Numbered from the stretch's first letter, positions 2,339 to 61,544 are shown. The stretch is DNA of 64,000 bases from an uncultured delta proteobacterium (GCA_963704205.1 CAVPHN010000023.1:1-64000), one strand, 5' to 3'. Notes: generated by a model not told the origin, from the letters alone. Program-made: numbers and translations.

Positions 2339-3695
2339 TTATCCTAACATCATGCTTTCTTCAGAATATTCAATCCCTGCGTTTTTCTCATCACCGGCAA
2401 TGAAATAAAAAAAACTGAGGACCCCGACCCGGCCGATCAGCATCATGATGCCGAGCAGAAACTTGCCCCAATCGTTGATTGTCGTTGTAGCTCCCATGGA
2501 AAGTCCCACGGTTCCAAAAGCGGATAAGACTTCAAAGAGATAGATCAGAAAATGATTTACAGCCACTGGCCCCTGAGCGGGTATTGACGGCTGCGTGATC
2601 AACATCAAGAAAAAGATGGCGCTTATAGAAAAAACCGACATGCCGACAATTGCCAGGCTTTTTATGACATTGGTGTCACTGATGCTTTTTTTATAGATAT
2701 TGGGATGGAATACGCCCTTAAGTCTGGCTATGGCGGAAACAGCCAGAACCGTAATGGTTGTGGTCTTTACGCCGCCGGCGCATGAACCGGGCGATGCGCC
2801 GATAAACATGAGTATCATCATAAAAAACGCCCCGGCATCACTGAGCGTGGAAAGATCCAGTGTATTGAATCCGGCGGTTCTGGCGGTAACCGACTGAAAA
2901 AAGGAAGCCAGGATTTGTTGGGCCGGGTTCAAGCCTTTCAGAGAGTTGTTCTGCTCCAGCGCCAGATACAAAATCATGCCGGCATAGAATTAAAATGCCC
3001 GTTGTGGTTGTTGTAATCTTTGTTTGAAGGGATATTTTGACGCGTTTTTTTCGTCTTTTGGAAAGATAATCGTAAAGGTCAAAAATAACCGGAAATCCGA
3101 TACCGCCTAAAATGATCAGGCCGCAGATGGTAAAATTGACTGTTATTGAATCTCTGTAGCCGGCAAGGCCTGCGGGAAAAAGAGAAAAACCGGCATTGCA
3201 AAACGCTGAAACCGAGTGAAATACTGCAAAATATGCGGCCTGAGGAATCGGAAAATCGCGGCTCCAGTAAATCGTAAGCAAAACAGCGCCAAGCAGTTCC
3301 GTGAGCCCCGAAAAAATAAAAATGGATTTGAGCAGTGCATATATGTCTTTTCGGGGGGTATGGGCAAAGGACTCCTGCATGACCCTGCGATGCTGGAAGG
3401 AAACATTCATCCCGATAAACTTGAAAAATACCACGGATATGGTCATCAGTCCCAGTCCGCCGACCTGTATCAGTATCAGAATAACGGCCTGTCCGAACAG
3501 CGTAAAATGTGAACCTGTGTCAAGAACGGTAAGCCCGGTGACGCATACGGCGGAAGTCACTGTAAAAAGTGCATCCATAAAGGAAATATAGCCGGAAGCG
3601 TTTGAAACGGGTAGCGTGATCAGGGCGGCGCCAACGCTGATGCAATCCAGAAAACTGAGGATGATGATAGTTGCCGGATGATGTTTTCTGGTCAT
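2339..3695 (-). CDS. ktrB: K+ transporter membrane subunit KtrB/TrkH family (apparent frameshift near 2980-3050)
   Basis: Two overlapping minus-strand ORFs (2838..3791 and 2339..2977) together give a TrkH/KtrB-like polytopic membrane protein (MTRKHHPATIIILSFLDCISVGAALITLP..., ...GGVKTTT...). The reading frame switches near a T-rich stretch. The real start is likely the ATG at 3695. Confidence 0.7.
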
Positions 3696-3901
3696 GACTG
3701 ACGTCTTTGCCGCTGTTTTACCAACTAAAATAAATTGCTTAAAAAAGCTTTTTTGCGATTGGGTGATAACGCGAATCGAACCTAACAACACCCAGGCGCA
3801 GAAAGGTGCTAATTAAGCGCGGACGAACTTGTATCATGGTTAACAGGTAATATGCAACAGGATCATTGTTTACACGCTCAGTTACAGGCAGCCTCAAAAA
3901 T

Positions 3902-7147: not shown

Positions 7148-7263
7148 AACCGCCTCCTGTTTTGTCTCATATCGCCTGCTGGCTGATTCAAAAGCTTTTG
7201 TATCAGATTAACCGGACTATTAGCCATGCGCGGTGCGTGTGCAAATAAAAAATTTATATAATC

Positions 7264-7334
7264 AATAGATTGTATCTATTTTTTGTATAAATATTAATGA
7301 TAAATCACCTGTTACGAAAGACTGTATCGTAACG
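7264..7334. promoter_or_regulatory. Candidate operator palindromes in the AT-rich leader upstream of the ACAD-TetR operon
   Basis: Perfect inverted repeat AATAGAT-tgt-ATCTATT (7264..7280). A second inverted repeat GTTACG-N11-CGTAAC (7312..7334). Both share a TGTATC core and lie about 120-190 nt upstream of the ACAD start codon (7147, minus strand). Confidence 0.3.
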
Positions 7335-7431
7335 CAAAGCGCCTGTCAATAAAATACGATCGCTCGTTTTATCAGGAACGGATAATTGGCCTTCATTTGA
7401 AAGCGATACCCGACATCAGGAGTCCGTGGTT

Positions 7432-7614
7432 ATGAAATTTCATCGCAGGAAACACAAGGATAACGCTACCATTGGGCGCTTTAAGGATGATATCATCGAT
7501 CATGGCGGCAATCCTGAAGCAATTGATGATGCCAGATGCGATATGTCTCATGCCATTATCAAGGGGATTAAAGTGAATCTGCCCAATGCTCAACTGGGCA
7601 ACACAGCCGTTTAG
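7432..7614 (+). CDS. Small hypothetical protein (60 aa)
   Basis: ATG at 7432 is preceded by a strong SD (CAGGAG at 7416..7421). No recognisable domain. Convergent with the CbbQ-like gene. Confidence 0.35.
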   Translation: MKFHRRKHKDNATIGRFKDDIIDHGGNPEAIDDARCDMSHAIIKGIKVNLPNAQLGNTAV

Positions 7615-7662
7615 AAACGATGAAATAGAACATCAGATATTGTAGTACATTATCTAAGCTCA

Positions 7663-8523
7663 TCACAGACTGTCATCCTTTTCTCCAAACATATCATTCA
7701 TTAAATCCAAAAGCGTTTCCTGAAGCCGCCGGTCATCGGACAAGGGAAGGCAGATAGCGGTGCGACAGGCCTCGATGATGGATATTCCCCGCTGAATGAG
7801 GCAGGCCGCATAAATCAGGAGTCGGGTGCTGGCGCCCTCGGTCAGCCCTTGCTCACGGATGTTTCGGATTTTTCCGGCCAGCAGAACCAGTTTCAGGGCG
7901 GTTTCAAAATCCAGACCGCTCTCACGTGAGACGATGGCAGCTTCATTTTCAGGATTCGGATAATGGAATTCCAGGGAGACGAAGCGCTGCCGTGTGCTTT
8001 GCTTCAAGTCTTTCAGCACGGACTGGTACCCTGGATTGTAAGAGAGCACCATCAGAAAATCGGAATGGGCCTGAATACTTTCCCCTTTTTTATCGATATG
8101 AAGGGTTCTGCGGCTGTCGGTCAAGGGATGAATCACTACGGTGGTGTCTTTTCTGGCCTCTACGATTTCATCCAGATAGCAGATGGCACCTGTGCGGACG
8201 GCGCGGGTCAGGGGACCATCCATCCAGACGGTTGCATCGTTAAAAAGCAGATACCGGCCGATTAGATCTGACGCAAAGAGATCTTCGTGGCAGGCTACGG
8301 TAATCAGGGGCCTGCCAAGTCGGTGCGCCATGTATTCCACAAAACGGGTTTTGCCGCAGCCTGTCGGCCCTTTCAGAATAACCGGAAGCCTTGCGTGGTA
8401 TGCGGCTTCAAATAGCGGAATTTCATTTGCTGACGGCAGATAGTAAGGTGCTTCGGCATCATTTTCCCCCTTTTGGGGGGCATCCTCATCCGGGCAGTTA
8501 TTGGCTGGTGACTGAAATGTCAT
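7663..8523 (-). CDS. CbbQ/NirQ/NorQ/GvpN-family MoxR-like AAA+ ATPase
   Basis: 286 aa. Walker [18 protein letters not shown] and Walker B region [14 protein letters not shown]. Strong resemblance to CbbQ/NorQ. No vWA (CbbO/NorD-type) partner gene is visible nearby. Confidence 0.8.
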
Positions 8524-8555
8524 AAAGAAAAATGCTCCGCGAAATAGTTTGCGTG

Positions 8556-8584
8556 TTGCATGAAACTATAAAATATTATATGAT
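8556..8584 (+). promoter_or_regulatory. Candidate sigma70 promoter for the traB-hydrolase-protease cluster
   Basis: TTGCAT (8556..8561), 17-nt spacer, TATGAT (8579..8584). About 100 nt upstream of the TraB-family start at 8683. Confidence 0.3.
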
Positions 8585-8682
8585 ATCAAAAATTTATACT
8601 GTTGACAGAAAACAAGCGACATGTCACAGATTTTGCTTGAGTTAATAACATTGACCCTTAACCCATAAGGATTATATACGGA

Positions 8683-9856
8683 ATGTCTGAATCCAACAAT
8701 CATAATATGGTTCACCGGCTTTGCCTGGAAGGCAAGGAAATCGTTTTGATCGGCACGGCCCATGTATCACAGGAAAGCTCGGATCTGGTCGCCGCGGTGA
8801 TTGAATCGGAAAAGCCGGATACGGTCTGCGTTGAGCTATGCGCTTCCCGCTATCAGTCCATTCGCTTGAAAGACCAGTGGCAGAACATGGACATCGTAAA
8901 GGTCATCAAGGAAAAGAAAACATTTCTGCTGCTGTCGAATCTGATTCTGGCGGCGTTTCAAAAGCGGATTGCGGCAAAGCTCGACATTGTTCCGGGCGCA
9001 GAGATGATTCGCGCCATCGAAGCCGCGGATGCATCGGGTGCGGTCATTCACCTTGCCGACCGGGAGATTCGCGTGACTCTGTCCCGGGCCTGGAAGGCCA
9101 TGACGTTCTGGGAAAAAAACAAGTTATTGTATCATTTGCTGATGTCTTTTACCGAAGCGGAGGAAATCAGTCAGGAAGATATCGAAAAAATGAAAGAGCA
9201 GGATGTTCTGGAAGCCCTGATGGCGGATGTGGGAAAAACCCTTCCCATGTTAAAGCGCATTCTGATCGAAGAGCGGGACCAGTATTTGTCTGAAAAAATC
9301 CGCACGGCACCGGGCAGAAAAATCGTGGCAGTGGTGGGAGCAGGGCATGTTGCAGGAATCAAGGATAACTGGAATAAACCCATAGATATTGCCGCGCTGG
9401 AAACGCTTCCGCCGGATGGCAGGCTTGCGGCGGTCCTTGGATGGGGAATTCCGCTGGTGATCGTCCTGATGATGGCGATCGGATTTTTCACCGGCGGTGC
9501 GCATGTGGGAACCAACATGATCACGGGATGGATACTGACAACCGGCATACTGGCGGGCATTGGCGCTGCCGCAGCCCTGGCCCATCCCCTGACGATCCTC
9601 TCCTCGATTCTGGCAGCTCCCATAACCACGCTTCATCCGCTGATTGCCGCTGGCTGGGTTTCGGGTCTGGTTGAGGCATTTTCTCGAAAGCCCAGAGTTC
9701 GGGACATCGAGGCTCTGCCGTCAGGACATCTTGTCTGTAAAAGGGTTCTGGAGGAACAAGGTGACACGGATCCTTCTGGTGGTGGTGTTTACCAACATCG
9801 GCGCCTCAATCGGAACATTTGTGGCAGTGCCTTTGATGCTGAGAATGATTCACTAA
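8683..9856 (+). CDS. TraB/GumN (TIKI-like) family protein with C-terminal transmembrane region (frameshift near 9700-9750)
   Basis: N-terminal TraB-family region (IVLIGTAHVSQESSDLV...DTVCVELCASRYQS). C-terminal TM helices. The conserved C-terminus (...KGFWRNKVTRILLVVVFTNIGASIGTFVAVPL) is found in the overlapping ORF 9644..9856 in another frame. Confidence 0.7.
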
Positions 9857-9928
9857 ACCCTTGCGCACAATTGCGGTTCAGAAGGTATTTTTCACGGGGA
9901 AAATATTATTTGAATTAAAGCCTGAAAT

Positions 9929-10685
9929 ATGATCAAATTATCACAGAAGGATGCATCCTGTACAGATTTGTCATTCTCGTCGGATGGTTTCCGGTTATCG
10001 GGGACCCTTCATTTACCTGGAATGCCTCTGCCACCGATTGTTGTGGGTTCGCACGGCCTGCTAAGCAGTGGCAGTTCACCCAAACAGATTGAATTGGCCA
10101 GGCAATGCAGCGAAAACGGCATGGCTTATTTTCCGGTTCGATCATCGCGGATGCGGCCATAGTGATGGCGGCAAGGCCGATGCCGCTGATTTTAACGGCC
10201 GTTGCCGGGACCTTCTCAGCGCTGTTGACTTTTTGAGAAACCTTGACTGCCTTAGCCCTGTGATAGGACTGTTCGGCAGCAGCCTGGGAGGGGCGGTTTG
10301 TCTTTCGGTAGCAGCCGCAACACGCGTCCATGCACTGGTTACCGTTGCCGCACCCCTTGACAGCAGCTCTTTGATTGATTCGGCTCAGGGTGTTGTCCCG
10401 GCCGGGCTTTCGGCGGATCTGGCACTTTCTCCCCGGTTTCGGTTCGATCTGTCGGACAGCCTGTCCGCTATCCGCAATCTCTTGATTTTTCATGGGGAAA
10501 ACGATTCGGTTGTACCGGTATCCCATGCCCGGAAACTGTTTGAAAAAGCAGGCCATCCCAAAAAACTGGTGATTCAGGAAAATGGAGATCATGTCATGAG
10601 CCTTCTCCTTCATCAGAAATTGTTCATGCAGGAATCCCTTTTGTGGTTTTCAACGATCCTGAAGACCGACCTGAAGAACAAATAG
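9929..10685 (+). CDS. Alpha/beta-fold hydrolase (dienelactone-hydrolase/S9-like), frameshifted near 10130
   Basis: N-terminal part in ORF 9929..10162. The remainder in ORF 10068..10685 carries the nucleophile elbow GLFGSSLGGAV, then ...IFHGENDSVVP and a histidine near the C-terminus (ENGDHV). Confidence 0.6.
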
Positions 10686-10705
10686 ATCAGGCCAAAGGAG
10701 TCATC

Positions 10706-13700
10706 ATGCCGGAAGAGCTTCCCAGACATTTTTTTACCAGAGCCTTTGTAAAAACCATCCTTCGCCGTTCGCTGGCGCTGGCAACCCTGGTGGGGCTTTT
10801 TTACGGTCTGTCAGCGCTGGTATATGCCACCCGGGCCATATTCAAAGTCAAAATGAATTACGCCGTGGTGCTGGAACGTTTTGGCGGCCACCGCGAGGCC
10901 ATCACGGACATCGGCTGGCATGTTCGCCTGCCGTATTTTACCCGCATTGAACAGGAAGTCTCCCTGATGAACCAGACACTGTTTCTGAGCGGAAGTCCGG
11001 AACCCATGAGAATTATTTCAAAGGAAAGCGTTGCGCTCTGGACATCGGCCGTGCTGACCTACCGGATTCGGGATCTGAAGACCTGGGCCATAGAGAATCT
11101 GGATCCCCTGCACCTGCTTCAGGGAGATTATGACGGCATTGTCAAGGACATCCTTCAGGCCCATGAGGTCAACCAGCTCATCAGCAGCCGTGAAAAAATC
11201 AAGGATGATATTTTTGTCGCCTTAAAATCCAGACCGATCAATGAAGGCGGCCCCACGCTTGAAAAAAAATACGGTATTGAAGTGGTGAGCTTTGTCCTGA
11301 AGGAAACCCGCTTTGGCGATAAACTGATTGAAGCCACGGAAGAAAAGAAACGCAGAGAGATGATCGCTGAAGCGGATAATTATTCGGCCGATCAGGAAGC
11401 CAGCCGGATTCGAAAGCTCTATGCCGCATATCTGGAAAGCATTCAATCCCTGCAGCAGGCCCTTGGCAGGCCGGACGGATCCACGGACGGGGCGCTTCTG
11501 CAGTTTCTGACCCAGCAGAAATGGGCCACGGCCTATGAAAAAAATGTTGAGGGCCAGAACACCATCGTGATTCAGAACACCCAGGATTCGCCGGCAATTA
11601 CCCTTCCCTCTGCTCAGCCTCACCGGAAACCCGACTGGAGAGCGGTAATGGCAAGAAGACTGACAAAAGAAGTCAGGTATATCAACCTTCCTGAAAAACG
11701 GATTGACGAAATCAGCCGGCTTGTGTCTTCCTGGCCGTATGAAACCAAAGCATTCATGCGCTCAAGACTGAATCAGTACAGCCCGCCGTCGGACTGGCTC
11801 AATACCCTGCTGGAAAATTTTCTTTCCTTCTTTTTTGCAGCCCCGGAAAAGCATTTTGTGATTCTGAAAGATCCGGAGATTCTGACCGACTGGCAGCGCC
11901 GTTTTGAAATTTCCGGAAAAACCAATCCTCAGCAGGCCTGGAACAAGATCCTGGAAAAGGAAGTATCGGCCAAGGACTATATCTATCTGCTGTCGCTTCT
12001 GGATAAGGATCTCAGCGACGTTCATGTTCCCGTGGAGCTGACAACGCTGTTTGATAAAATCTACCGGGCCCATATCCGGAAAGAATATCTTTCTGATCCG
12101 TCCGTTCCCAAGGCACCCCTGATTCTTTTTATCGGCCCGAGTGGCAGCGGCAAGACATCTACGGTCCGCCAGACCCTGGAGCAGGTTATTTTTGTCAACG
12201 AGGTGCGGCCCGAGGTGGATCTGGCGCAGAAAAAAGAAGAAGCCCTTGCCGGAGAACCTTTCTGGAAAACCATCGACCAGGTGGACCCAACCCTGGCAGC
12301 AGAAATCGCCAGACGGAAAAAAGCGTCTTTTTACAAATATCCTGGCCCAAGTGCCTGTAATCAGCCGCCTTCTGAAAAACCGGATCGGCAAAAATCTTTC
12401 TCAACTTGAAGAGCAGGGGGTTCTGGTCGATTACACCATGATCACCCCGAACGATTTCCAGACCGCCCTTGCCGGAGAACCCGGCAATTATTTCAAGAAA
12501 GCGCTGGGTGATCCGCGAAGAACAAGCATCCGTCATGTCGAAGAAGCGCACAGCGCTTTTGGAAAAATCGAAGGCAAGGACAGCAGCGGAACCGATCGTC
12601 AGCAGAGAACCCTGATCGATACCGCCAATATCGTGATCGATGAAATCATCAATGGCCGAAGAGACTGCCTGCTGATCGCCACGACGGATCAGCCCGAGCG
12701 CTTTGACCAGGCGATTTACCGGCGTTTTGTGGAAAAGGGAAAAATACTGGATCTGTCGGATTTCTGGAAAAATCCGGAAAACCTGACTGAAGTCGTTCGC
12801 CTGGAGCTGATGCGAAACGATATCGTGGTCACGGATACTCCCGATGACGTCTGTCTGCGCAACGCCCGGTGTATTTCTCCGTCCCAGGTGCGATCGGCTG
12901 TGGAAATAATCTATGTCATTTTTCAGGAAAGAACCCTTAAAATCACCCCGGCCTATGTTCGTAAGCTGGTTCATTCCATCATTGAAATACAGGGCGGCTT
13001 TTCGTCAGCCTACCTCGAGGATTCGCTTCTGGTGAGAAAAGCCTTTGAGCTGGTTGCCAGAAACGCTTTCGGCGATTTGTTCGAAAAAGTCGTGGACCGG
13101 ATGGACCGCCTCGTACACTGGGATGATTATGTGGGAAAAATAAAAGACGTGTTTTCGGAAATGGCGAACAATTGCCTTTATTACAACGTCAGCGAAGAGA
13201 AGGGCGTGGTGTTGAACGGCCCGCCGGGAAGCGGAAAAACCTTTCTTGTCCGGGCCTGGCTCAGCGAAAACAGCGATATTCACGATATCGCCACAAGCGC
13301 GTCCGCGCTTCAGGATCCGGTAAATCCGTGGGAAGGCGCGGTAGAGAACCTGGAAAAAGTCTATGACATCGCCAAAATGATTGCCCCTTCCCTGGTGTTT
13401 TTTGATGAAGGGGATTCCCTGGCGCCCCGTCGCAGTGCTTCCGGCGGCTCTCCTTCCGATAAACTGACCAATAAATTTTTGAATTTAATCGACGGCGAGA
13501 TCCCTCTCAACCAGGTGTTTACGGTTCTGACCACCAACCGGCTCGATATTCTGGATCCGGCCCTGATCCGGTCCAAGCGGCTGAAGGTGCAGACAATATC
13601 CGGCCATTTGCGGCTAAAGGATATTACGGATATTGTTCGACAGGCACTAAAGAATATTCCCCTGGCCCCTGAGCTCTCGATCGAAGCCATTGTGGAATCC

Positions 13701-15080
13701 GCCAAGGGACTCTGCAACACTCCGGCGGATTATTCGGCGTTTGTGGAAAAAGCCCGCTCGCTTCGCAGCACGGAATATGAAGTTCTGCTGCGGATTCGCG
13801 ACCTTGCCGATGATTCGAGTGCGATCCGTGATAAATTTGTCAAATTTAATTTTAAAACCCTGATGGGGATTCTTGAAGCTGTGGATGCGCCGCAGTCGCT
13901 TCGGTCCGCCGTTTATGGGGATCCTGCGGGGTTTTTGTCCCGCTATGGCGATGTGATCGAGTTGCTCAAACCGGTAACAAGTTTGGAAGGCTATCCGCTG
14001 ATGACTTCCCACCTGAATTCCGCCCGCCAGGAAATCTCTCACAGTCCGGTAAAAATAGGCAAAATGCAGCTCGATGATTTTCTGGAGGCCGAACTCAGTC
14101 AGGAACCTCAGGTGGGTTTTATTATCGGCGTGGGCGCAAGCGATGTGTCCGGCGTACTTCTTCCCATTGCCACCAGCCTGACTTACAGACTGTCCGCTGA
14201 AAAAGTTCTTGTCACAGGGGCTGTGTCATCCGGCTCCTCGGCAACAGCGGAACTCGACATGGCGGTTCAGATGACCCAGCAGTCTGCCCAGGAAGCCCTG
14301 ACAATGGTAAAAAACTATCTTCAGGAACTGGACCCCAAGGTCAGCATTCCCAAATTACTGGGTGATTTTCTCGATCGGTATACCATCCATCATCAGCTTC
14401 TTTCCGCATCCTACAACGTCGGCGGTCCATCCGCTGGCTATGCCCTTGCACTGAACACCCTGTCCGCACTGCTTCAGATTCCCATATATCACGATTTCGG
14501 GATTACCGGGGCGCCCTGGACCAAGGGCGTGAAAAAAGGCGAGGTAGGCGGCTCCGTCATCATCGGCGGGCATAAGAAAAAAACAGAAAAAGTCCTCCAG
14601 TATTTACGCAGAATGTATATGCCGCTTCAAAATTACAAAGATCTTGAAAATGAATTCCTGGTGAATTTCTGGGAACAGGGAAAAGACGTTCTTGGGGTTT
14701 CCAATTTTGGAGAACTGGTTCCGGAAGTCGTCTGCCTGGGACCGGAATATGAGGTGATACTGAAGGAACTGATTGCCATTCGGATAGAATATAAACTAAA
14801 AAAAACCGGTGGCAATTCCGCATATGATACGCATCGGGAAAAAATCCTGAAACTTAAGAAAATTCTGAAAGATCAGCTCGAGGCCCATATTGTGGATCGA
14901 CTCGAAGCCATTCGAAAATACCTCAGAAATCCTGTCAGCGATCCCCATCAGTCGCTGGATGAGATTTTTATGGAATATAAAAAATCCAAGCTTATCGGCA
15001 TATCACCGATTCTGAATTTTATGAGCAATCAGAAAAAATGGATAGGCCGCTGGTCCACCTGGGGGCGAAAACCGGAGTGA
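10706..15080 (+). CDS. Giant membrane-anchored SPFH/band-7 - AAA+ - AAA+ - Lon-type (S16) protease fusion protein (about 1460 aa; one frameshift at an A6 run near 12315)
   Basis: ATG at 10706 with AAGGAG 7 nt upstream. A TM helix (LALATLVGLFYGLSALVYA) is followed by an HflK/C-like SPFH domain (NYAVVLERFGG...IGWHVRLPYFTRIEQEVSLMNQTL...). AAA module 1 has Walker A LILFIGPSGSGKTSTV and Walker B IVIDEIINGRRD. AAA module 2 has Walker A VVLNGPPGSGKTFLVRA, Walker B LVFFDEGDSL and sensor-1 VLTTNRLDILDPALIRSKRL. The C-terminal Lon catalytic domain has NVGGPSAGYALALNTLSAL...ITGAPWTKGVKKGEVGGSVIIGGHKKKTEKV (Ser in PSAG, Lys in the GGHKKK motif). ORFs 10643..12409 and 12141..15080 overlap; both frames make sense on either side of the homopolymer. 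Confidence 0.75.
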
Positions 15081-22369: not shown

Positions 22370-22762
22370 TCACCCTTTTCGGTGACGATTCATGTCGGCG
22401 GGGCTGATAATATAGGCGACTTCCTGAATGGTGTTTTTCCCCAGCAGAAATTTGATGTATTCAACAGCCAGAACCGACTGCATCTGATACTGGCTGAGCT
22501 GGCTCAGATATGAACCGTCTTTCATGGTTTCGGCAATCAGCTTTGCGCCTGAGCCGGCATTGTCTCTGTATTTTTGCGACAAGTGGGTGATGTATTTCTT
22601 GACCTTGTCTCTGAGCTCGTCTGCCGAAAATGTTTTGATCACGGAAAATATCTCAGCCATTTTATCCGCTGCCGGAAGATAAGGGTTTTCCAGAATCTCT
22701 TTTACGGTTTCCGAGTAACGTTGAAGTCCTTTATAGATGTGCTGATTCTGAACCATATTCAT
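22370..22762 (-). CDS. Hypothetical protein (130 aa)
   Basis: ORF with no recognisable domain. Overlaps the upstream gene by 4 nt (ATGA), suggesting translational coupling. Confidence 0.4.
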   Translation of the reverse strand: MNMVQNQHIYKGLQRYSETVKEILENPYLPAADKMAEIFSVIKTFSADELRDKVKKYITHLSQKYRDNAGSGAKLIAETMKDGSYLSQLSQYQMQSVLAVEYIKFLLGKNTIQEVAYIISPADMNRHRKG

Positions 22763-23571
22763 ATCCGCCCATCCAGCCCGAAGCCATTTGAAAACGCCGC
22801 AGCGTACCTGACGGATCCTGCACCGTCCTGCTCTATGAATACCGATACGGTATAGGAATCATACATATAGGAATTCACCCATCCCAGCCCCGGTTTGTTC
22901 AGCCCGTTCTGGCCTGAATAGAAATAATCCCAGTTGCCGTCCTTTCCCAGAACCGCTCCTTTTTTGCCCACATCCGAAACGTTTATCTGCTTGGATACGG
23001 ATATCAGGGCAGGGCGGCCTTGATATTTACACAATATCAGGATGCGGTTCAGGTCATATCCATAATAAGCGCCGGTATTCAGATCCGGGGTGATTTCTTC
23101 ATGCTCCACCCCGGAGACCATGACCGGACGATCCAGCACCGCCAGCTTTGAAGCCAAATCCGGGAAGAGCTGATTTTTTCCGTTAATCTCTGTCCAGTAT
23201 GCCAGACGCACCGAAGAGGGTGAGAGAACAAATGGCGGAATATTGGGATTAAACCCGATATCAAGGATGTGCTTGAGATCTTTATGAATATCGAATTCAT
23301 GGTAGGCTGATGAGATGTTTGACCGGTTTTCAGGAAAATATAAGTCATCGTTGTTTTTCGACATCCGGACAAATTCAATGATGTTTTCAATCATAGCGGA
23401 ATCAAAAGTCTGGGAATGCCCGGGTTCAGCCAGGGACAAAAGATAGTTCAGTCCGGGATTAACGGATTCAGGAACCGGGACGTCCTTTCCGGACTTGTCC
23501 GAAGCCATTGCAAACGAGGCAAACGCGGTTAATAAAAAAAGAAATAGATATCGGATCAATGGGGTTGCCAT
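22759..23571 (-). CDS. Hypothetical secreted protein (270 aa)
   Basis: N-terminal signal peptide (MATPLIRYLFLFLLTAFASFAMA). No recognisable domain. Confidence 0.45.
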   Translation of the reverse strand: MATPLIRYLFLFLLTAFASFAMASDKSGKDVPVPESVNPGLNYLLSLAEPGHSQTFDSAMIENIIEFVRMSKNNDDLYFPENRSNISSAYHEFDIHKDLKHILDIGFNPNIPPFVLSPSSVRLAYWTEINGKNQLFPDLASKLAVLDRPVMVSGVEHEEITPDLNTGAYYGYDLNRILILCKYQGRPALISVSKQINVSDVGKKGAVLGKDGNWDYFYSGQNGLNKPGLGWVNSYMYDSYTVSVFIEQDGAGSVRYAAAFSNGFGLDGRI

Positions 23572-36562: not shown

Positions 36563-37871
36563 TCAGGTCAGCCGAACCCTGACGGAGCGTGCGTGGGCGC
36601 CGAGCCCTTCGATTTCCGCCAGCCGGATGATATCCGGCGCCTCCTGCCTGAAAGCCGCTTCTGAATAGTGAATCAAACTGGTTTTTTTAATAAAATGGTC
36701 CACGGAGAGCGCAGAAGAGAACCGGGCCGTTCCTGATGTGGGCAGCACATGATTGGGTCCTGCGATGTAATCCCCAACGGGTTCAGGCGTATAATGTCCC
36801 ATGAAAACGGCCCCGGCGTTTCGAATGCGTTCGATATATTCCAGCGGAGAATTCAAATGCAGTTCAAGATGCTCCGGCGCAATGGCATTGGCAAGGTCGA
36901 ATGCAGCAGTAATGTCTTTAACCACAAATACAGCGCCATAGTTTTTAAGCGATTCTTCGGCAATGTCCTGACGCGTCAAATCCGTCAACTGTCTACTGAC
37001 TGCTTCAGCAACCTGTTTGGCCACTTTTCGTGAAGGGGTAACCAGTATGGCGGATGCCATCGGGTCGTGTTCGGCCTGAGACAGCAGGTCTGCTGCAGTA
37101 AATTCTGGATTTGCGGATTCATCGGCAATGATCAGAATCTCACTCGGGCCTGCGATCATGTCAATGCCGACAGCCCCTGCAACCATTTTTTTGGCAAGGG
37201 TGACGTAAATATTTCCTGGCCCCACGATGACATCGCATTTAGGAACCGTGCCTGTGCCATAAGCCATTGCGGCGATTGCCCAGGCGCTGCCGACCTTGTA
37301 AACCGCATCGATCCCGACCCGTTTTGCAGCAATCAGAATATGGGGATTGACTGCCCCGTCCGGAGTTGATGGCGTCGCCATGACAAGGGTGGACACGCCG
37401 GCGATTCTGGCCGGAATGGCGCACATCAAAACTGTCGAAACCAGACGGCGTTTTGCCGGCTGTACCGCCGGGAACATATATTCCAGCGGTACTCACGGGA
37501 TTTACGATCTGTCCCAAAAGCGTTCCGGGCCTCGGGGTATCAATCCAGGATTTTGAAGACTGGTTCCGGTGAAAGCATTCGATTTGGGATGCGGCGCGGT
37601 CCAGGGATTCCATGAATTCCGGACTTACCTTAAGAGCTGCTTCTTCAAATTCCTGAACGCCTGCCCGAATGGTCCCGATGTTGAGACCTGGTGAATCAAA
37701 CCGGTTTGCATAATTGATCAGTGCCGTATCTCCGTTTTTGCGCACATCTTCAAGGATGCGTGCGACAGCCCGCTGATCTTTTTGGTTGAATGATTGCACC
37801 CGGTTTTCAATAACCGAAAGCCGTTTTTCAGCTGATGAAGAAGGATAGGAAAAGATTTTCATGAAAACCAT
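36563..37871 (-). CDS. hisD: Histidinol dehydrogenase (frameshift near 37440-37480)
   Basis: N-terminal part in ORF 37239..37871 and C-terminal part in ORF 36563..37477 (...HYTPEPVGDYIAGPNHVLPTSGTARFSSALSVDHF). Together they cover a full HisD. Confidence 0.85.
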
Positions 37872-37894
37872 AAACCCTCAAAAGAGTGATATTC

Positions 37895-38747
37895 TCAATA
37901 AATTCTGTTAGACTCAAAGACCATGTCTTTGGCAACTGCAAAGCAGGTGATGGAACTGCCCTGTTCTCTGAGTCTCTGGTTGCAGTCGGCAACAATGGCA
38001 TCCATTTGCAGATCGGTCCGTTCCTGATTGATGTGAAAGAGTCCCAATCGCTTTACGCCTGCCTGAACCGCGAGCTTGAGAACATCGGTGTAAACCGAAT
38101 GCCCCCATTCGATGGTTGTCCGGTACTCCTCGGGCGTGTATTCGGCGTCATGAATCAAAAGATCGGCGCCTTCACAAAAATCCCGGTACGCTTCAAACGG
38201 CAACCCCTTGGGGTGAATATATCCGAGTTCGTTATCTGTCAGAAAATACGATTTTTTTGTTATTTTCGATAAACTTGTAACCGCTGCCGCTGTTGGGGTG
38301 GCACATCGGGATGGGAATCACTGAAACCGAACCAATTTCAAACTGGGAAGGACAGGCTTTCTCATATTCAATATTTGCCTTTACATCCGAATATCGTATC
38401 GGGAAATTGGGAGGCGTCATGACCTTTGAAAGCATGGTTTCAACAAATGTCTTCTGAAACGGGCAGCGGTGCATGAGAAGTTGCGCATCTTTGGAGTACA
38501 GGGGTTTGAAAAAAGGGAACCCCATCAGATGATCCCAGTGTGCATGGGTAAAAATAAAATGGTATTTCAGGATGTTCTCTTTCATCAGGTGGTGGCCGAG
38601 TCTGCGAATCCCTGTTCCGGCATCCACGATGATGATATCGCCGCTATCCGTTTGAATTTCCATACAGGTTGTATCGCCGCCGTATTTGAGATATTCGGCC
38701 CCGGAAACCGGGATTGAGCCCCGGGATCCCCAACATTTGATCCGCAT
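37895..38747 (-). CDS. MBL-fold metallo-hydrolase (frameshift near 38205-38235 at a T-run)
   Basis: HxHxDH motif (FTHAHWDHLMG) in ORF 38232..38747. The C-terminal continuation is in ORF 37895..38203. Confidence 0.7.
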
Positions 38748-38759
38748 GATGACCTGCCT

Positions 38760-49085: not shown

Positions 49086-50112
49086 ATGCATACTGCAAAT
49101 GAAAGATCCTTGATCGGCATCGACGGGCGCCCTCGTTTCGGTATCTACACGCAGCCCCCTGACATCACTTGATCTGGACGATTTCCGTCCCTACGGCGAG
49201 AATGCCGGAGCATTATCCGCCAAGCACTGGATTTTGAAGTACCGGATCAAGCGATGGGAATATCTCGGCATCTGCAACAACGACATCATCTTCGGCATCG
49301 CCGTCGTCCGCCTCGGCTATATGTGCAATCTGTTCACTTATCTCTTTGACCGCCGTAGCGCCCGGATCAGCGAATATGACATCCTCACGCCTGGCGGAGG
49401 TGCTGCGATCTTCAAGGGAAACTCCCAGACAGGCAGCATCACTTTCAAGAGCGGAAAAACGGCGGTCCGCATGACAAGCGATCCTGAAACCATTACCGTT
49501 GAGGGGTCCATAAAGGAAGCGCTTTCCGTTAGCCTTTCTTTCCGCAAGTATGAGGCAGCCGCTTGTCTGCCTGACCCGGACAGGCCTGAAAGGTTTTAAC
49601 TACACCCACAAAGAGGCAGGTATCCCCGTCCGGGGGACGATACGCCACAAGGAGGAGTCGTGGGATATTCAGGAAGCCGCAGTCTTTCGGTGTCCGGGAC
49701 TATACGCTGGGCTACCTGGCCCGTCAGACGTTCTGGAACTGGGCCTCTGGAGGCGGTATGGACAAGGCGGGGAACCGCATCGGCTTTAATCTTGTCCAGG
49801 GGGTCAACGAAACCGGATTTACGGAAAACGCATTCTGGATCAATGGCCGCCTTGTCAAAACAGATGTCGTGGATTTCCGCTATGACGATCTGGACCTGCT
49901 GAAGCCCTGGCACATCGAATCCAACGACGGCCGGGTCCGGCTCCGGTTTCTGCCGGAGGGCAGCCGTTCGGCGAATACGCATGCAGGGTCTGATCGTGAG
50001 CAGATTTCACCAGCCTTTTGGCCGCTTTGAAGGGACGTTACAGGCCGGGGATCAGATCTGCGAACTGCAAAACGTCTCCGGGTTTACGGAAGAACACTAC
50101 GCCAAGTGGTAG
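49086..50112 (+). pseudogene. DUF2804-like protein, disrupted by at least 2 frameshifts
   Basis: Fragments across three frames (MHTANERSLIGIDGRP..., MKYRIKRWEYLGICNNDIIFGIAVV..., ...NRIGFNLVQGVNETGFTENAFWINGRLVKTDVVDF...). Family assignment is tentative. Confidence 0.35.
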
Positions 50113-51375: not shown

Positions 51376-53213
51376 CTATGAAGCAACGGAAGAAATGATT
51401 TCTGTGGTAAATTCTTCGAGGTTCGTCGGCAGGTTGAAAAAGACGATCATAAACGGTATCGTTGCGCCGGGTAAGACTTTCTGGTTGATGCGATTGTCGC
51501 CGGAACGGTTCTGAAGTCGCTGCTGGAGCGTGGTTGCATCTGCATTGGCCAGATCCAAGTCCGAAAGAATATTGCCGCAGAACACGGTTTCCGTTTTTAC
51601 AAGAGCTTTATCCTTGGTATAGAGTTTTCCAGCGATCTGGATAGAGCCGCGGGCAGTCGGATATTCGTTTTTAACCTTGCCGGTGATGACAAAGAGTTTT
51701 CCGATTTTATCATTATCAACAAATTTGCTGCTGATATCAAAGGACTTGATATTGAGATTTCCCGGATCAGAGACCTTGGAAGGGGCTTGCTGGCTGATAA
51801 ACGGAATGGAAATTCCCATGGAGTTCAGCAGCATATATCCGCCATAACTCACCGCGGCAATCACGGCCATGATAAGCGCAATCAGAATCAGGGGGCTGAT
51901 TCCTTTTTTGGGTGCCGGACGCGTGTCGTTCTGCTCTTCGTCAATATCCGCACCGATGGAAGAGTTCATTTCCTTGTCTTCAGATACGGTCGTCCAGGCT
52001 GAAGGTTTCAGGCTGCAGGACAGGTTCGGCAGGGGGTTCAGGAATTTCGGATAAATGGGGTTGGAACGATTCTTTGATTTCCAGCAGGGTGGCGGATTCC
52101 GAGTCATCCTTATCCAGTTGAAGTTCATCAAATGTCAGATACTGATCTTCCATTTCCAGCGGTTCATCGGTTTCTGTTGATGAAGCCGGCAGGGGAAAGA
52201 TGATCGAATCAGCGCGCTGGAAGTTTTCATCGCCATCATTTAAGGCGCTTGCGTTGACCTCCTGCTTTTCTATAAGACTTTCTATGTCTGACAGATCCAG
52301 TGTTTCAATGTCGTTGAAGCCGATGAGCGTATCTTCAGAAAACGGCGCATCTTCTGATGCTTGATCTGTTTTGATTTCCGAATCAGCAGCCTCTTTTTTC
52401 TGGTCAGCGGCTGTTTTCGATTCGGCAGAAGAAACGAGTGAGATATCGGAAAAATCCATTTCAAGTGTATTTTTCAAAATCGTCTATCGACAAATCTTGG
52501 GGTTTCGGGCTCAGAAAAGTCCAATTTTGTTTCGGTTTCGAGATTCACACCTGGAACTTGATCTCATCAAGGTCAAAGGATTCATCGAGTGAAATATCGG
52601 AAAAAACCTGTTCAAATGTTTCATCTGTTTTGTCGGAGAGAAGATCTGAATCCTCTGTTTCGATAAGATCAGGCGTTTCCAAATCAGAGCTGGGTTCATC
52701 CTGTCCGTCCTTGATTTCAGGCAGATCCAGTGAAATTTCAAAAAGGTCGGATTCCACCGCTTGTCCGATGCTTCAGAGAAATCAAGCGGGCCTGATGGTT
52801 CACCGGAAGATAGAAAGGACGCCTCCGGAAGCTGATCCTCTTGAAGATTCGAGAATGCGTCCTCTGATTTGTCCTTGTTATCTTCCTGCAGTAATTTATC
52901 GAGTTCTGAAAAATCGAATTCGGCAATATCCTTAAAATCCCCAGGCAAAGCAGATGTTTCAGGCGAATGACCTGAGACTGCGAGCGCCGGGTTCATCCAG
53001 TGCAGGCATTTGAAAAAGGGGCGGAGAAAGAGAAAATTCAGGGGATTTATCAGAAAGTTCTACGGGCAGCGGTGGAGAAATATCCTCGGGAACGAAAGGG
53101 AAAACCTTGAAAACCTTATGGCATTTCGAACATCGTACTTTTGAACCGGATGGTTTAATGAGTTCATCGTTCAGGTTAAAGGTTGTAAAACACGCTTCAC
53201 AGGTTACGATCAT
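51376..53213 (-). CDS. MJ0042-type zinc-ribbon / acidic-repeat / TM / DUF3426 protein (at least 2 frameshifts in the repeat region)
   Basis: N-terminal zinc ribbon (MIVTCEACFTTFNLNDELIKPSGSKVRCSKCHKVFKV). Long acidic region with degenerate D-[LF]-S-[DE]-I/L repeats spread over three ORFs (52511..52996, 51980..52477, 52545..52757). TM helix (ISPLILIALIMAVIAAVSYGGY) and DUF3426-like C-terminal domain in ORF 51376..52131. Confidence 0.55.
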
Positions 53214-54830: not shown

Positions 54831-56722
54831 TCAAGCAGTAATATCCGCATGTCTGTCAAACACTTTTATCGCAATCATCAATACGGAAATGGCCGAAGGT
54901 GTCATGCCGTCAATCCGGGAAGCCTGGCCCAGAGATGCGGGTTTGACCGCAGCAAGTTTTTCTTTCAGTTCATTGGAAAGCCCGTGAATGTCGGCATAAT
55001 TCAAGGATTCCGGAATTTTCATGCGCTCCAGATTTCTGAATTTGTCGATTTCCCGGTATTGACGCTGGATATAGCCTTCATACTTGATTTCAATTTCAAC
55101 CTGCTGGCTGATTTTAAAAGACAGGGGTTGTGCGTGCAGGGGCCAGAGTTTCCACAACCCGGTAGTCCAGTTCCGCCCGTTTCAGCAGATGATCCAGATG
55201 GATTCCGTTATCAATGGGTTTTGTTCCCTGTTCACTCAGATAGGCGTTGACGCTGTCCGTTGGTTTGATGACCGTTGTCTTGACGCGTTGAATCTCATTT
55301 TCAATTTCTTTTTTTCGCTCTTTGATATCTGTCAGGGTATTTCGGTCAATGAGCCCGAGTTCAAAGCCGGTTTCCATCAGACGCAGATCGGCATTGTCTT
55401 CGCGAAGCATCAGGCGGTATTCTGCCCGGGATGTGAACATGCGGTAGGGCTCTCGGGTTCCCCGGGTGACCAGATCGTCAATCATCACACCCATGTATGC
55501 CTGGGAGCGGTCCAAAATAAACGGCGGCCTTTTTTGAATTCTACAGGCGGCATTGATGCCGGCCCATAGCCCCTGGGCAGCCGCCTCTTCGTATCCGGAT
55601 GTTCCGTTTATCTGACCGGCCAGATAAAGACCTGAATACAATTTTGTTTCCAGCGTGGGTTTCAATTGAATCGGATTGACATAATCGTATTCAATTGCAT
55701 ATGCCGGCCGCATGATTTCGGCATTCTCAAGCCCGTCCACAGAGCGGACGACTTCAATCTGTACTTCCAGGGGAAGGCTGTTTCCGAGGCCGCTGGCATA
55801 AATTTCTTCGGTCTCCAGTCCTTCTGCCTCCAGAATGACATGATGCCGGTCTCTTTCGGGAAATTTTACCACCTTGTCTTCAAAAGACGGGCAGTATCTG
55901 GCGGAAACTCCCTGAATGACGCCCCCGTAAAGCGCTGAACGGCCGATGTTGTTCTGAACAATCTGATGGCACCGTGAATTGGTGTATCCCATAAAGCTTT
56001 CAACCTGAGGCAGAGAAATGTTTCTGGAAAAATATGAAAACAGTTTCGGATTTTCTTCAGAGCCCTGGGCCGTAAATTTTGAAAAATCGATGCTGGATTT
56101 TTTCAGGCGCGGAGGGGTTCCGGTTTTCATCCGGCCGAGGGCAAAGCCCAGGGTTCTCAGATGTTCCGGAAGGCTGTAGGAGGCAAATTCACCGGCCCTT
56201 CCTGCCTGCATGGACCGAAATCCAACGTGAACCAAGCCGCTCAGAAAGGTTCCGGTCGCCAGAATCACACACGGAGGCGCTATATCCAAAGCCGGTGTGA
56301 TCTTCAATCCCCACAACAGCGTTGCCTTCAATCACCAGACGTTCCACCATGGCCTGCTTCAGATCCAGGTTCGGCTGGCGCTCAACAACGGATTTCATCA
56401 GGGTATGGTACCGGTTTTTGTCATTCTGGGTTCGGGAAGAGTGAACCGCAGGGCCTTTCTTGGTATTTAATGTCCGGTACTGGATGGCGGTTTGATCTGC
56501 AATTCTGGCCATTTCTCCGCCGATTGCATCGATTTCCTTGACAAGCTGACCCTTGGCCATTCCGCCGATTGAAGGGCTGCAGGGCATGGTTGCAACCTTA
56601 TCCAGATCAATTGCCAGCAGCAGAACCGCGCACCCCATTCGCGCCGCAGCCAGAGCCGCTTCACAGCCGGCATGTCCTGCGCCCACCACAATAATATCGT
56701 AATGTTTTGTATAGAAAACCAT
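54831..56722 (-). CDS. mnmG: tRNA uridine-5-carboxymethylaminomethyl modification enzyme MnmG (GidA), 2 frameshifts
   Basis: FAD motif ([23 protein letters not shown]) in ORF 56189..56767. Central domain in ORF 55114..56331. C-terminal helical domain in ORF 54831..55157. Together they give an MnmG of about 630 aa. Confidence 0.85.
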
Positions 56723-56759
56723 TGGTAAAAGCCCTTTGGTATGATAAAAAAAGCAGGTT

Positions 56760-57646
56760 ATGGACAAACGCTATACCGACTACAACTCCTATCTGCGACA
56801 GATCTTCGGATGCAGGGTCCAGAAAATCTCGATTGACGCCGGCATGTCCTGCCCCAATCGGGACGGTCGAACCGGTACGGGCGGCTGCATTTATTGCAAT
56901 GCCAGGGGATCCGGTACGGGCGCGTTTGCTCAAGGGGTTTCGGTTGCTGAACAGATTGTCCGCAGCAAGGCGTTGATGGCAAAGCGATACAAGGCCACAA
57001 AGTATATAGCCTATTTCCAGTCTTTTTCCAATACCTATGCGCCGGTTTCTGTTTTAAAACAGCCTCTATGACGCGGCGCTGACGGTTCCGGGGGTTGTGG
57101 GACTTGCCATCGGAACCCGGCCGGACTGCGTGGATGCGTCGATCCTCGACCTGCTTGAAAGTTATGCGGATGCATTATCTGGTATGGATTGAATACGGTC
57201 TTCAGTCCGCACACGACCAAACCCTGCAGCGGATTAACCGGGGGCATGACTTCGAGTGTTTTCAAAAAGCCGTGTCATTGACCCGAGACCGGGGAATAAA
57301 TATCTGTACCCATTTGATTCTGGGGCTTCCCGGAGAAACCCGGAAGATGATGCTGAATACCGCCAGAACCATTGCCGCTATGGGGATTGACGGCGTCAAG
57401 CTGCATCTGTTGTATGTCGTCAAGGGAACGGCTCTTGAAACCCTTTACCGGCAGGGGGATTACCGCTGTCTGGAGCAGCAGGAATATGTGGATATTGTCT
57501 GCGATGTTCTGGAGCTGCTTCCCCGGGAAATGGTCATTCAGAGATTGACCGGAGATCCCCATCCCGAAGAGCTGGTCGCGCCTTTCTGGTCTCTGGCAAA
57601 AATCTCAAACCTTATCCATGATAGCGGAAACGCTCAAAAACCGTGA
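56760..57646 (+). CDS. Radical SAM protein, TIGR01212 (YhcC-like) family (frameshift near 57040-57130)
   Basis: N-terminal signature (KISIDAGMSCPNRDGRTGTGGCIYCN). The C-terminal two-thirds are in ORF 57095..57646. Confidence 0.7.
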
Positions 57647-59515: not shown

Positions 59516-61454
59516 TTATTTTTTTTCTTTGACTTCCTCAAAATCCGCGTCCACCACATCATCATCAGACGGTTTTTTTGACGAAGTTCCCTCTGATCCG
59601 GGACCGCCCGCGTTTCCTGCTCCGTTTTCGGAAGGGTCGCCGGACTGGGACGCTTTCTGATACATGGCTTCGGCAATCTTGTGAGATGCCTGCATGAGCT
59701 GATCGGTCAGGCGCTTGATCTGTTCGATGTCGTCGCTTTCCATCGCCTTTTTAAGCGGCGTGACCGCTGCTTCCACCTGGCCGCGGGTTGCGCCGTCCAC
59801 TTTATCCCCCAGATCCTTCATGGACTTCTCTGTTGAATAGATCAGCGTGTCCGCGGCATTTCGCGCCTCGACCAGTTCTTTTTTCTTCTTGTCTTCTTCG
59901 GCATGCAGTTCGGCATCCCGGATGAGCTTATCGATTTCATCCTTATTCAGCCCGCTGGAGGCGGTAATCTTGATGGACTGTTCCTTGCCGGTTCCCATAT
60001 CTTTTGCGGAAACATTCACGATGCCGTTGGCGTCAATGTCAAAGGTCACTTCGACCTGCGGCACGCCGCGCGGGGCCGGCGGAATTCCGACCAGCTCAAA
60101 ACGGCCCAGGGTTTTGTTCCCGTTTGCCATTTCCCGTTCGCCCTGAAGCACATGAATGGAAACCGCGGGCTGGTTGTCCGCGGCTGTTGAGAACACCTGG
60201 CTTTTTTTGGTTGGGATGGTGGTGTTCTTTTCAATCAACCGGGTCATCACACCGCCAAGCGTTTCAATGCCGAGTGACAGCGGCGTCACATCCAGAAGCA
60301 GAACATCCTTGACGTCTCCGCCCAGAACCCCGCCTTGAATGGCAGCTCCGATGGCGACAACCTCATCCGGGTTGACGCCTCTGTGGGGTTCCTTGCCGAA
60401 AATACGTTTGACCCGATCCTGAACCGCGGGCATGCGGGTCATACCGCCGACCAGAACCACTTCCTGAATGTCGCTGGGGGTCATGCCGGCATCTTTCAGT
60501 GCCATTCGGCACGGACCTTCAAGGTTGTCCAGCAGGTCCGAAACCAGGGCTTCCAGTTTTGCACGGGTGATCCGGAGATTCAGGTGCTTGGGGCCATTGG
60601 CGTCCGCAGTGATAAAGGGCAGGTTGACATCGGTTTCCATGGAGGTCGAAAGCTCCATTTTGGCTTTTTCCGCCGCCTCTTTCAGGCGTTGAAGGGCCAT
60701 TTTATCGTTTCGAATGTCTATTCCCTGTTCTTTTTTAAATTCGCTGGCCAGATATTCAATCAGCCGAAGGTCAAAGTCCTCGCCGCCAAGATGGGTGTCG
60801 CCGTTTGTGGATTTGACTTCAAATACACCTTCGCCGATCTCCAGAATGGATACGTCAAATGTTCCGCCGCCCAGGTCAAAAACCGCAATTTTTTCTTCTT
60901 TTTTCTTGTCCAGTCCATAAGCCAGCGATGCCGCAGTCGGCTCGTTGATGATGCGAAGCACATTCAGGCCGGCATATTTTCCCGGCGTCTTTTGTTGCCT
61001 GGCGCTGGCTGTCATTAAAATAAGCCGGAACCGTAATGACGGCATCCGTAACGGGTTCTCCCAGATAATCTTCGGCGGTCTTCTTGATATTGGCCAGAAT
61101 ATAGGAAGAAATTTCCGCCGGGCTCAGATTCTTGTCCCGAAGACTAATGCGGATATCGCCGTTGCCGGCTTCTTCCAGTTTGTAGGGAAGAACTTTGATG
61201 TCTCTTTGCACTTCCGGGGTCTGAAATTTACGGCCAATCAGCCGTTTGACAGCAAAAACGGTATTTTCCGGATTGGTAATGGCCTGACGCTTGGCAATCT
61301 GGCCGACAAGACGTTCTCCGCTTTCTGAAATCGCCACAATCGATGGTGTGGTTCGACCGCCTTCAGCATTTGTCAATACCTTGGCTTCGCCCCCTTCCAT
61401 GATGGCTACGCAGGAGTTGGTGGTTCCTAAATCAATTCCAATAATTTTGCCCAT
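59516..61454 (-). CDS. dnaK: Molecular chaperone DnaK (Hsp70), frameshift near 60950-61040
   Basis: N-terminal region ([19 protein letters not shown]) in ORF 60876..61454. The remaining 509 aa are in ORF 59516..61045 (…[18 protein letters not shown]…, substrate-binding and lid domains, acidic C-terminus). Confidence 0.9.
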
Positions 61455-61544
61455 GGGTAATCCTCCTTGGATATATAAAAGAAAATATCTTTAACGGTAT
61501 GTATTGCAGCCGGGACAAATGATGTCTCGGCTGCCGTATGGTTG

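Follow-up and report, generated by a model that had tools for sequence, protein, structure and literature searches.

Pairing of an SPFH protein with a protease is a recurring solution of membrane protein quality control, as in HflK/C-FtsH, stomatin-NfeD and prohibitin-m-AAA. In the HflK/HflC-FtsH system, an SPFH membrane scaffold made up of a K/C pair is encoded with an AAA+ ATP-dependent protease and presumably regulates it. FtsH itself is a membrane-anchored zinc metalloprotease with a single AAA module. The stomatin-NfeD (STOPP) system, for example PH1511/PH1510 of Pyrococcus, is also a conserved two-gene operon of an SPFH protein and a Ser-Lys serine protease, and its protease NfeD is ClpP-like, ATP-independent and membrane-bound. 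In this study, a locus of an uncultured delta proteobacterium was analysed. It spans positions 7432-15080 of a stretch of 64,000 nucleotides (nt) (GCA_963704205.1 CAVPHN010000023.1:1-64000). The whole stretch is referred to as the window, and all coordinates are those of the whole stretch. The locus carries an SPFH gene followed by a gene for a tandem-AAA+ protein with a Lon-type protease domain (AAA-Lon). In contrast to HflK/C-FtsH, there is one SPFH gene, and the protease is soluble with two AAA+ modules and a Lon-type Ser-Lys dyad. In contrast to stomatin-NfeD, the protease is of a Lon-like type and shares one chain with a double AAA+ unfoldase, and an extra serine hydrolase is often present. 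A gene for a TraB protein stands upstream of this set and diverges from a gene for a MoxR ATPase of the CbbQ/NorQ type.

We regard the region as two independent conserved modules that adjoin only in this genus-level Desulfobacterales clade, and its frame breaks as assembly errors, with a probability of about 0.7 for this reading. Module A (9929-15080) would be a membrane-associated ATP-dependent proteolysis cassette. It would consist of a single-pass SPFH scaffold and, translationally coupled to it, a soluble protein that combines a Cdc48-like double-AAA+ unfoldase with a Lon-type Ser-Lys protease. A presumably active alpha/beta serine hydrolase would precede the pair in about half of the species. 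Module B (7663-9856) would be the remnant of a widespread cluster, in which TraB is divergent from CbbQ/NorQ followed by a NorD-like vWA protein of about 920 amino acids (aa) and a 140-aa protein. Both modules appear to be undescribed, and the SPFH and Cdc48-like-Lon combination appears related to the known SPFH-protease systems. Literature searches found no description of either module.

A first-pass annotation of the sequence had taken SPFH and AAA-Lon for a single giant SPFH-AAA-AAA-Lon gene. When the fused translation was compared with homologues, all of the 120 best ones were about 1140 aa long and covered 77-78% of the fusion. In four loci of relatives (L001, L002 from Desulfosarcina ovata, L003 and L004), the ~1140-aa gene comes after a Band_7 gene of its own, 313-334 aa long. 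The stop codon of SPFH and the start codon of AAA-Lon overlap as TAATG in L001, and the same overlap appears in the window after removal of one inserted base, an A at 11634. This insertion lies 12 nt ahead of the SPFH stop and shifts the frame past it, so that the two open reading frames (ORFs) are fused. The giant gene is thus an artefact of a 1-nt insertion, and there are really two genes, SPFH and AAA-AAA-Lon, as in every homologue.

The main reference for the frame correction was L004. L003 and L004 are the closest relatives fetched, all of their genes are intact, and the window is 95.4% identical to them at the nucleotide level over 7.4 kb. Base-by-base alignment to L004 reduced the differences in gene length to four 1-nt insertions in the window, namely that at 11634, a T at 9721 within the TraB gene, an A at 10128 within the hydrolase gene and an A at 12339 within the AAA-Lon gene. 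There is no homopolymer run at any of the four sites. Removal of the insertions gave proteins of 390, 251, 313 and 1143 aa, as in the relatives. The uncorrected ORF listing and tblastn had shown the corresponding frame switches, and none of the three presumed plus-strand genes was intact as a single ORF. The frame of TraB changes near 9720, while the hydrolase falls into 9929..10162 and 10068..10685 and the giant gene into 10643..12409 and 12141..15080. A frameshift of AAA-Lon in the A-run at 12317-12322 had also been considered and was dropped, because the L004 alignment places it at 12339. The sole other length difference in the 7.4-kb alignment is a 3-nt in-frame deletion at 15063, near the poorly conserved C-terminus of AAA-Lon.

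The presence of one inserted base in each of four consecutive genes, none in a homopolymer run, could also mean that the frameshifts are real. TraB, the hydrolase, SPFH and AAA-Lon would then be decaying pseudogenes in this strain, or SPFH-AAA-Lon would be a genuine new fusion. This is improbable. Five housekeeping genes of the window are split likewise, as read from their translations: trkH (2339-3791), hisD (36566-37877), mnmG (55117-56770), dnaK (59519-61490) and nadE (63094-63946). The ratio of nonsynonymous to synonymous substitution rates (dN/dS) of the window copies of SPFH and CbbQ against relatives is 0.04-0.08. Besides, neither stop codons nor larger deletions were found in the locus, and the 95%-identical copies in L003 and L004 are intact. 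The splits across the window point to an indel-rich assembly rather than to pseudogenes. Considering the same type of split in housekeeping genes and the low dN/dS of the window copies, the four insertions are most likely assembly or sequencing errors. Further overlapping same-strand split ORFs occur at 22376-23571, 37898-38759, 49114-50027 and 51379-52483, and the frameshift density across the window is roughly one per 4-5 kb.

The domains named in the first-pass annotation are all present according to Pfam and the ORF listing: the CbbQ/NorQ ATPase, TraB, the hydrolase, Band_7, two AAA domains and Lon_C. In AAA-Lon, Lon_C (PF05362) was matched with 30.8 bits against a cut-off of 21.1. Aligned members with 33-88% identity all keep the catalytic residues S927 (in GGPSAG) and K977. 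In the same alignment, the Walker A lysine K169 of the first AAA+ module (D1) is invariant, and so are GPPGSGKT, the Walker B glutamate E586 and the arginine fingers R640 and R643 of the second module (D2). The C-terminal S16 domain, with its GGPSAG serine and downstream lysine, is common to LonA, LonB and LonC, and the nearest PDB sequences of the protease domain are archaeal LonB protease domains. However, canonical Lon has one AAA+ module of the HCLR clade, with a transmembrane (TM) insertion in LonB, whereas AAA-Lon has two such modules, both Cdc48-like and of the classic clade. It also departs from canonical Lon in its helical N-domain and in a long extension of helices at the C-terminus. 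The NCBIfam Lon models (TIGR00763, TIGR00764, TIGR02902 and TIGR02903) gave only 33-43 bits on AAA-Lon against cut-offs of 517-723, and the CDC48 model TIGR01243 gave 86 bits against 803.

For a comparison at the level of fold, an AlphaFold2 model of AAA-Lon was used, which has a mean predicted local distance difference test score of 76 and two AAA+ folds. The best PDB matches of the model in Foldseek were p97/Cdc48 chains, with about 740 aligned columns and E=1e-20. In phmmer, AAA-Lon matched VAT with E=1e-42, chiefly via D2, and the identity of D2 to that of p97/VAT is 30-35%. Therefore the tandem classic-clade D1-D2 arrangement is shared with Cdc48/p97/VAT. There are three differences from these proteins. 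First, D1 contains a large insertion of helices, and its Walker B departs from the canonical form. Second, the double-psi-barrel/beta-clam N domain is missing; the N-terminal 150 residues were modelled as helical, with no double-psi barrel. Third, the Cdc48 type hands its substrate to a separate 20S proteasome, whereas the protease of AAA-Lon is fused in cis.

The SPFH protein was matched by Band_7 (PF01145) with E=4e-16 and 60 bits against a cut-off of 23.6. It has a single hydrophobic helix at about residues 22-41 and a conserved basic tail ahead of it. In having one TM helix at the N-terminus and a basic tail on the cytoplasmic side, it resembles HflK/C. The topology is ambiguous from the sequence; the counts of lysine and arginine (5.4 ahead of the TM helix, 3.1 behind it) weakly favour an HflK/C-like orientation, in which the N-terminus would be inside and the SPFH domain periplasmic. 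The hydrolase was matched by Hydrolase_4 and Abhydrolase_1. Its nucleophile elbow is GSSLG (G116-S-S118-L-G120), and the triad of S118, D192 and H221 is kept in at least 93% of 28 orthologues.

The neighbourhood of SPFH and AAA-Lon was counted in the best 80 of 339 relatives obtained from a scan of 185,579 species genomes, and the denominators are the loci with enough sequence. An SPFH gene lies directly upstream of AAA-Lon in 71/71 loci. An orthologous alpha/beta hydrolase lies upstream of SPFH on the same strand in 30/63 loci. TraB was found upstream of the pair in 5/50 loci, and CbbQ near it in 8/47 loci, every one of them in the window's own clade. The window-like arrangement is kept in this clade (L001, L003, L004, L010, L014, L018, L019 and L076). 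By record title, nearly all of the best 80 relatives are metagenome-assembled genomes (MAGs) of Desulfobacterales or unclassified Deltaproteobacteria; the remaining titles are Thermodesulfobacteriota, Desulforhopalus, Proteobacteria/Pseudomonadota and an Olavius symbiont. In an exhaustive search of 1.84 billion cluster representatives, no more than about ten full-length clusters, defined at 50% identity, were found for AAA-Lon. The dedicated proteolysis module proposed in the first-pass annotation is thus retained for the hydrolase and for SPFH with AAA-Lon, and TraB falls outside it.

A homologue with 38% identity to AAA-AAA-Lon was found in a sequence annotated as Candidatus Woesearchaeota archaeon (L178 1-3844, JAAOXZ010000014.1), with a partial SPFH gene directly upstream that is 29% identical (E=6e-7). 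Judging from this one case, the pairing would seem to cross the divide between bacteria and archaea, by ancient origin or by horizontal transfer. In Desulfosarcina-type loci (13-14), a Band_7_1 and zinc-ribbon protein and a 411-aa protein are upstream instead of the hydrolase. The former is a second SPFH protein of 384 aa, in which Band_7_1 is fused to double zinc ribbons, encoded about 1.4-4 kb upstream of AAA-Lon; such loci include L025, L027, L032, L034, L058, L066 and L083. In D. ovata, DjlA-like, vWA and PspA genes are located within 10 kb of SPFH and AAA-Lon.

The remaining neighbours of SPFH and AAA-Lon are housekeeping genes: amidohydrolase, CinA, rRNA/tRNA methyltransferase and minCDE. 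They bear on the idea that an SPFH protein, an AAA+ protease and a MoxR ATPase together form an anti-phage or conflict island. Some defence systems do contain SPFH proteins and AAA+ ATPases, and PADLOC gave weak AAA-domain hits of IetA and TRIP13. However, these family matches reflect generic AAA similarity only, and PADLOC gave none for SPFH, the hydrolase or TraB. The housekeeping neighbours, a chromosomal position that is stable across 71 species and strong purifying selection also speak against such an island, which is highly improbable.

TraB is a bacterial Tiki-fold putative metalloprotease. The window protein was matched by PF01963 with E=4e-39 and, over its full length, by TIGR00261 with 368.7 bits against a cut-off of 178.35. 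Across six sequences with 58-69% identity, the motifs GTAHVS, VELC, ERD and GAGH do not vary, nor do the residues H27, E51, E197/R198/D199 and H222. As in other TraB/PrgY/Tiki proteins, GxxH, E and ERD motifs are present together with TM helices at the C-terminus, and the pheromone or Wnt contexts of these proteins are not applicable here. For the understanding of the usual context of TraB, metagenomes were scanned with a TraB alignment. The scan gave 80 loci (L098-L177) of 63-85% identity, 57 of which had enough upstream sequence. A divergent CbbQ adjoins TraB in 26/57 loci; of these, 18 continue with the vWA gene, 5 run into the contig end, and 3 lack a vWA gene although they have room for one. 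The 140-aa gene is directly divergent from TraB, without CbbQ between them, in 24/57 loci, and neither gene is found in 7/57. Downstream of TraB, the hydrolase was present in 0/50 loci with at least 1 kb of sequence, and SPFH or AAA-Lon in 0/38 loci with at least 2 kb. These counts indicate that the conserved partner of TraB is the cluster of CbbQ, the NorD-like protein and the 140-aa protein, and not the protease cassette.

The cluster is also found in fetched relatives. In L006-L008, CbbQ is followed by a 924-aa vWA protein and then by a 141-aa protein. In L090 (6648-12090), L091 (6702-12378) and L092, TraB is divergent from CbbQ, which is followed by a vWA protein of 905-917 aa and a protein of 140-144 aa. 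In L009, TraB is divergent from CbbQ and the vWA gene is absent; a 153-aa ORF after its cbbQ was compared with the conserved 140-aa protein and is not that protein. The vWA protein of the cluster is 905-950 aa long (~920), and its C-terminal 295 residues matched NorD of the NorQD complex (PDB 9qhd) with E=9e-39. The 140-aa protein is soluble and has the motifs W-GWGG, SCxGHIAT and P(R/K)WRPL, and it matched no family in Pfam and NCBIfam. The TraB-CbbQ-vWA-140aa cluster is conserved in Desulfobacterales, and its linkage of TraB to a MoxR-vWA pair is unreported in the literature searched.

The CbbQ protein of the window was matched by PF07728 (AAA_5) with E=2e-32 and by PF08406 (CbbQ_C) with E=5e-28, and in the PDB by NorQ (9qh4, E=7e-103) and CbbQ (5c3c, E=1e-99). 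It is 97% identical to P0121, and its orthologues across Desulfobacterales are 74-80% identical. Within the clade, dN/dS is 0.07 for CbbQ, 0.066 for SPFH and 0.17-0.18 for the neighbouring PBP and histidine kinase genes. CbbQ is therefore under strong purifying selection, with a value as low as that for SPFH and below those of the PBP and histidine kinase genes, and it is functional. The window protein thus matches the structures of both NorQ/NorD and CbbQ/CbbO systems, and its relatives encode a NorD-like vWA protein directly downstream. On the other hand, the conserved neighbours here are TraB and the 140-aa protein, and no cNOR or Rubisco client genes were found in the window, L001-L009 or L090-L092. 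The vWA protein of the cluster is also about 300 aa longer than NorD.

The vWA gene is absent at the window locus. As claimed before, the whole 64 kb of the window are without a vWA partner; four vWA queries were run in tblastn, and no NorD-like gene was found. The absence had seemed odd beside an AAA+ protease cluster. It appears less so when CbbQ is placed with the TraB-vWA-140aa cluster, from which the vWA gene has been displaced in this clade. In L018, a member of the same clade with 89% nucleotide identity, the genes are cbbQ, metallophosphoesterase, LysE, vWA (949 aa) and an MBL-fold gene, and the vWA gene is 2 kb downstream of cbbQ. Orthologues of this vWA gene with 75-81% identity stand alone, without cbbQ, in L093-L096. 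L096 with the stand-alone vWA gene and L001 with cbbQ but no vWA gene come from the same sample, ERZ25039527. A stand-alone vWA gene and an orphan cbbQ were not obtained in one MAG; P0397 is on a 9.7-kb contig of an unrelated assembly. In the simplest reading of these sequences, CbbQ would be an orphan by position only, the operon having been split by rearrangements and its NorD-like partner being encoded elsewhere.

The homology to L003 and L004 stops exactly at the stop codon of cbbQ (7663), which places the breakpoint at 7662/7663. Beyond it, an AT-rich spacer (7148-7662) contains an ORF, which had been described as a 60-aa gene with a strong Shine-Dalgarno sequence. The ORF matched Pfam DDE_Tnp_ISL3 with E=0.004 and annotated ISL3 transposases in tblastn with 49% identity (E=9e-7). 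It is convergent with cbbQ and absent from all clade relatives. By these matches, it is a transposase relic of the ISL3 family that marks the synteny breakpoint downstream of cbbQ. The left flank also differs, with ACAD, TetR, APH and TrkAH in the window and with adenosine-deaminase-like, OYE-type and ACAD genes in L003/L004. A simple deletion, in which the window ACAD would be orthologous to the ACAD near cbbQ in L003, was rejected, because the two are 25% identical and the left flank is another region. Coordinates of the features are given in Table 1.

Table 1. Features of the locus after removal of the four inserted bases, in window coordinates.
Feature	Position	Strand	Evidence
ISL3-family transposase relic	7432..7614	+	Pfam DDE_Tnp_ISL3, tblastn
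CbbQ/NorQ-type MoxR AAA+ ATPase, 286 aa, intact	7663..8523	-	AAA_5 and CbbQ_C, PDB matches
Divergent intergenic region, 159 nt	8524..8682	.	Candidate promoter and AAGGA Shine-Dalgarno sequence
TraB/PrgY/GumN (Tiki-fold) membrane protein, 390 aa corrected	8683..9856	+	PF01963, TIGR00261
Alpha/beta-fold serine hydrolase, 251 aa corrected	9929..10685	+	Hydrolase_4, Abhydrolase_1
SPFH/Band_7 membrane protein, 313 aa, one N-terminal TM helix	10706..11648	+	Band_7
Tandem-AAA+ (Cdc48-like D1-D2) and Lon-type Ser-Lys protease, 1143 aa corrected	11648..15080	+	AAA and Lon_C

The divergence of CbbQ and TraB was confirmed, and the 159-nt spacer between them contains the sigma-70-like promoter that had been suggested, TTGCAT-17-TATGAT at 8556..8584 on the plus strand. 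The block is present and conserved among seven clade members, and its -10 element is a perfect TATAAT in most relatives. On the other hand, the sequence agrees with the consensus at 8/12 positions, which is below the threshold of the promoter scanner, and the scan gave no more promoter-like sites for the region than for shuffled sequence. It may be kept as a reasonable promoter candidate. A conserved AAGGA Shine-Dalgarno sequence lies ahead of traB. A GGAATATATAC-like sequence ahead of the traB start (window 8660-8682) was considered as a general element and rejected, as it was found at 18/70 loci; it is probably the Shine-Dalgarno sequence with an AT-rich spacer. Similar sequences are also located at the equivalent position in the distant lineages L009, L090, L091 and L116-L124. 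Rfam gave only tRNA-Met for the whole window and no family in 8524..8682.

In the model of the first-pass annotation, TraB, the hydrolase and SPFH-AAA-Lon would form one dedicated multi-hydrolase operon, served by a divergent CbbQ without vWA partner. The three lie on the same strand with short gaps and with the clade-conserved block upstream of traB. The gap of 20 nt between the hydrolase and SPFH stands; that between TraB and the hydrolase is 72 nt instead of 10, with the corrected TraB stop at 9856. The arrangement is kept in the eight clade loci listed above, and CbbQ stays by SPFH-AAA-Lon in L015-L017 even without TraB. Nevertheless, such an operon is unlikely in view of the counts given above. 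Homologues of the presumed giant gene occur without TraB or hydrolase neighbours, the cassette having TraB upstream in few species loci and CbbQ likewise. TraB loci elsewhere carry CbbQ-vWA-140aa and never the cassette. A NorD-like vWA gene is normally directly downstream of CbbQ orthologues, and it is still nearby in L018 of the same clade.

Two independent modules are therefore preferred, and their possible functions can be outlined as follows. If HflK/C-FtsH and stomatin-NfeD are taken as analogues, the SPFH oligomer would most likely serve at the membrane to recruit an AAA-Lon hexamer or to gate it. Proteins in the membrane or close to it would in turn be extracted and degraded by AAA-Lon. 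In Module B, rearrangements in the clade would have parted the vWA gene from cbbQ, with the ISL3 relic marking the break in this genome, and the partner of CbbQ is presumably still a NorD-like protein, now encoded at another site.

Several points weigh against this picture. A complex of the HflK/C-FtsH type, and with it an interaction of SPFH with AAA-Lon, is suggested here by synteny alone, that is by the 71/71 loci, the TAATG overlap and the one archaeal homologue. If the SPFH domain is periplasmic, which the charge counts weakly favour, it would be across the membrane from the cytoplasmic AAA-Lon. In D1 of AAA-Lon, Walker B is the non-canonical EE, and the sensor-1 residue varies. The NorD-like partner is known from relatives, and in the source genome it is a presumed one. 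Finally, a divergent cbbQ adjoins SPFH-AAA-Lon in three species from the wider clade, L015 (8070-9944), L016 (5234-7140) and L017 (8069-9944), with no TraB or hydrolase between them. This arrangement was most likely caused by deletion, and it could hint at a link between CbbQ and the cassette in the clade.

Overall, the earlier observation was partly confirmed and its interpretation partly supported. The locus also gives a lesson for annotation, as single-base assembly errors can give the false impression of a giant multidomain gene and of a small ORF preceded by a strong Shine-Dalgarno sequence. A broader proposal has two parts that would hold together. SPFH with the Cdc48-like double-AAA-Lon would be a distinct class of membrane-tethered ATP-dependent protease, shared by Desulfobacterales and DPANN archaea, in which a single chain unites a p97-type unfoldase with a Lon peptidase and an SPFH scaffold of its own always accompanies it. 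TraB would be served by, or work together with, a NorQ/NorD-type MoxR-vWA chaperone for remodelling or metal insertion, along with the conserved 140-aa protein; in the former case TraB would be the client. We put this joint proposal forward tentatively, at somewhat less than even odds. If it is true, a soluble Cdc48-like unfoldase-Lon fusion with its own SPFH protein would be a third architecture and would widen the SPFH-protease principle. Bacteria would also offer a compact model in which p97-type extraction leads straight to degradation. The tight linkage of TraB to a NorQ/NorD-like chaperone gives a testable hypothesis for a family of unknown bacterial function, and, if true, it would open a first functional approach to TraB proteins in bacteria.

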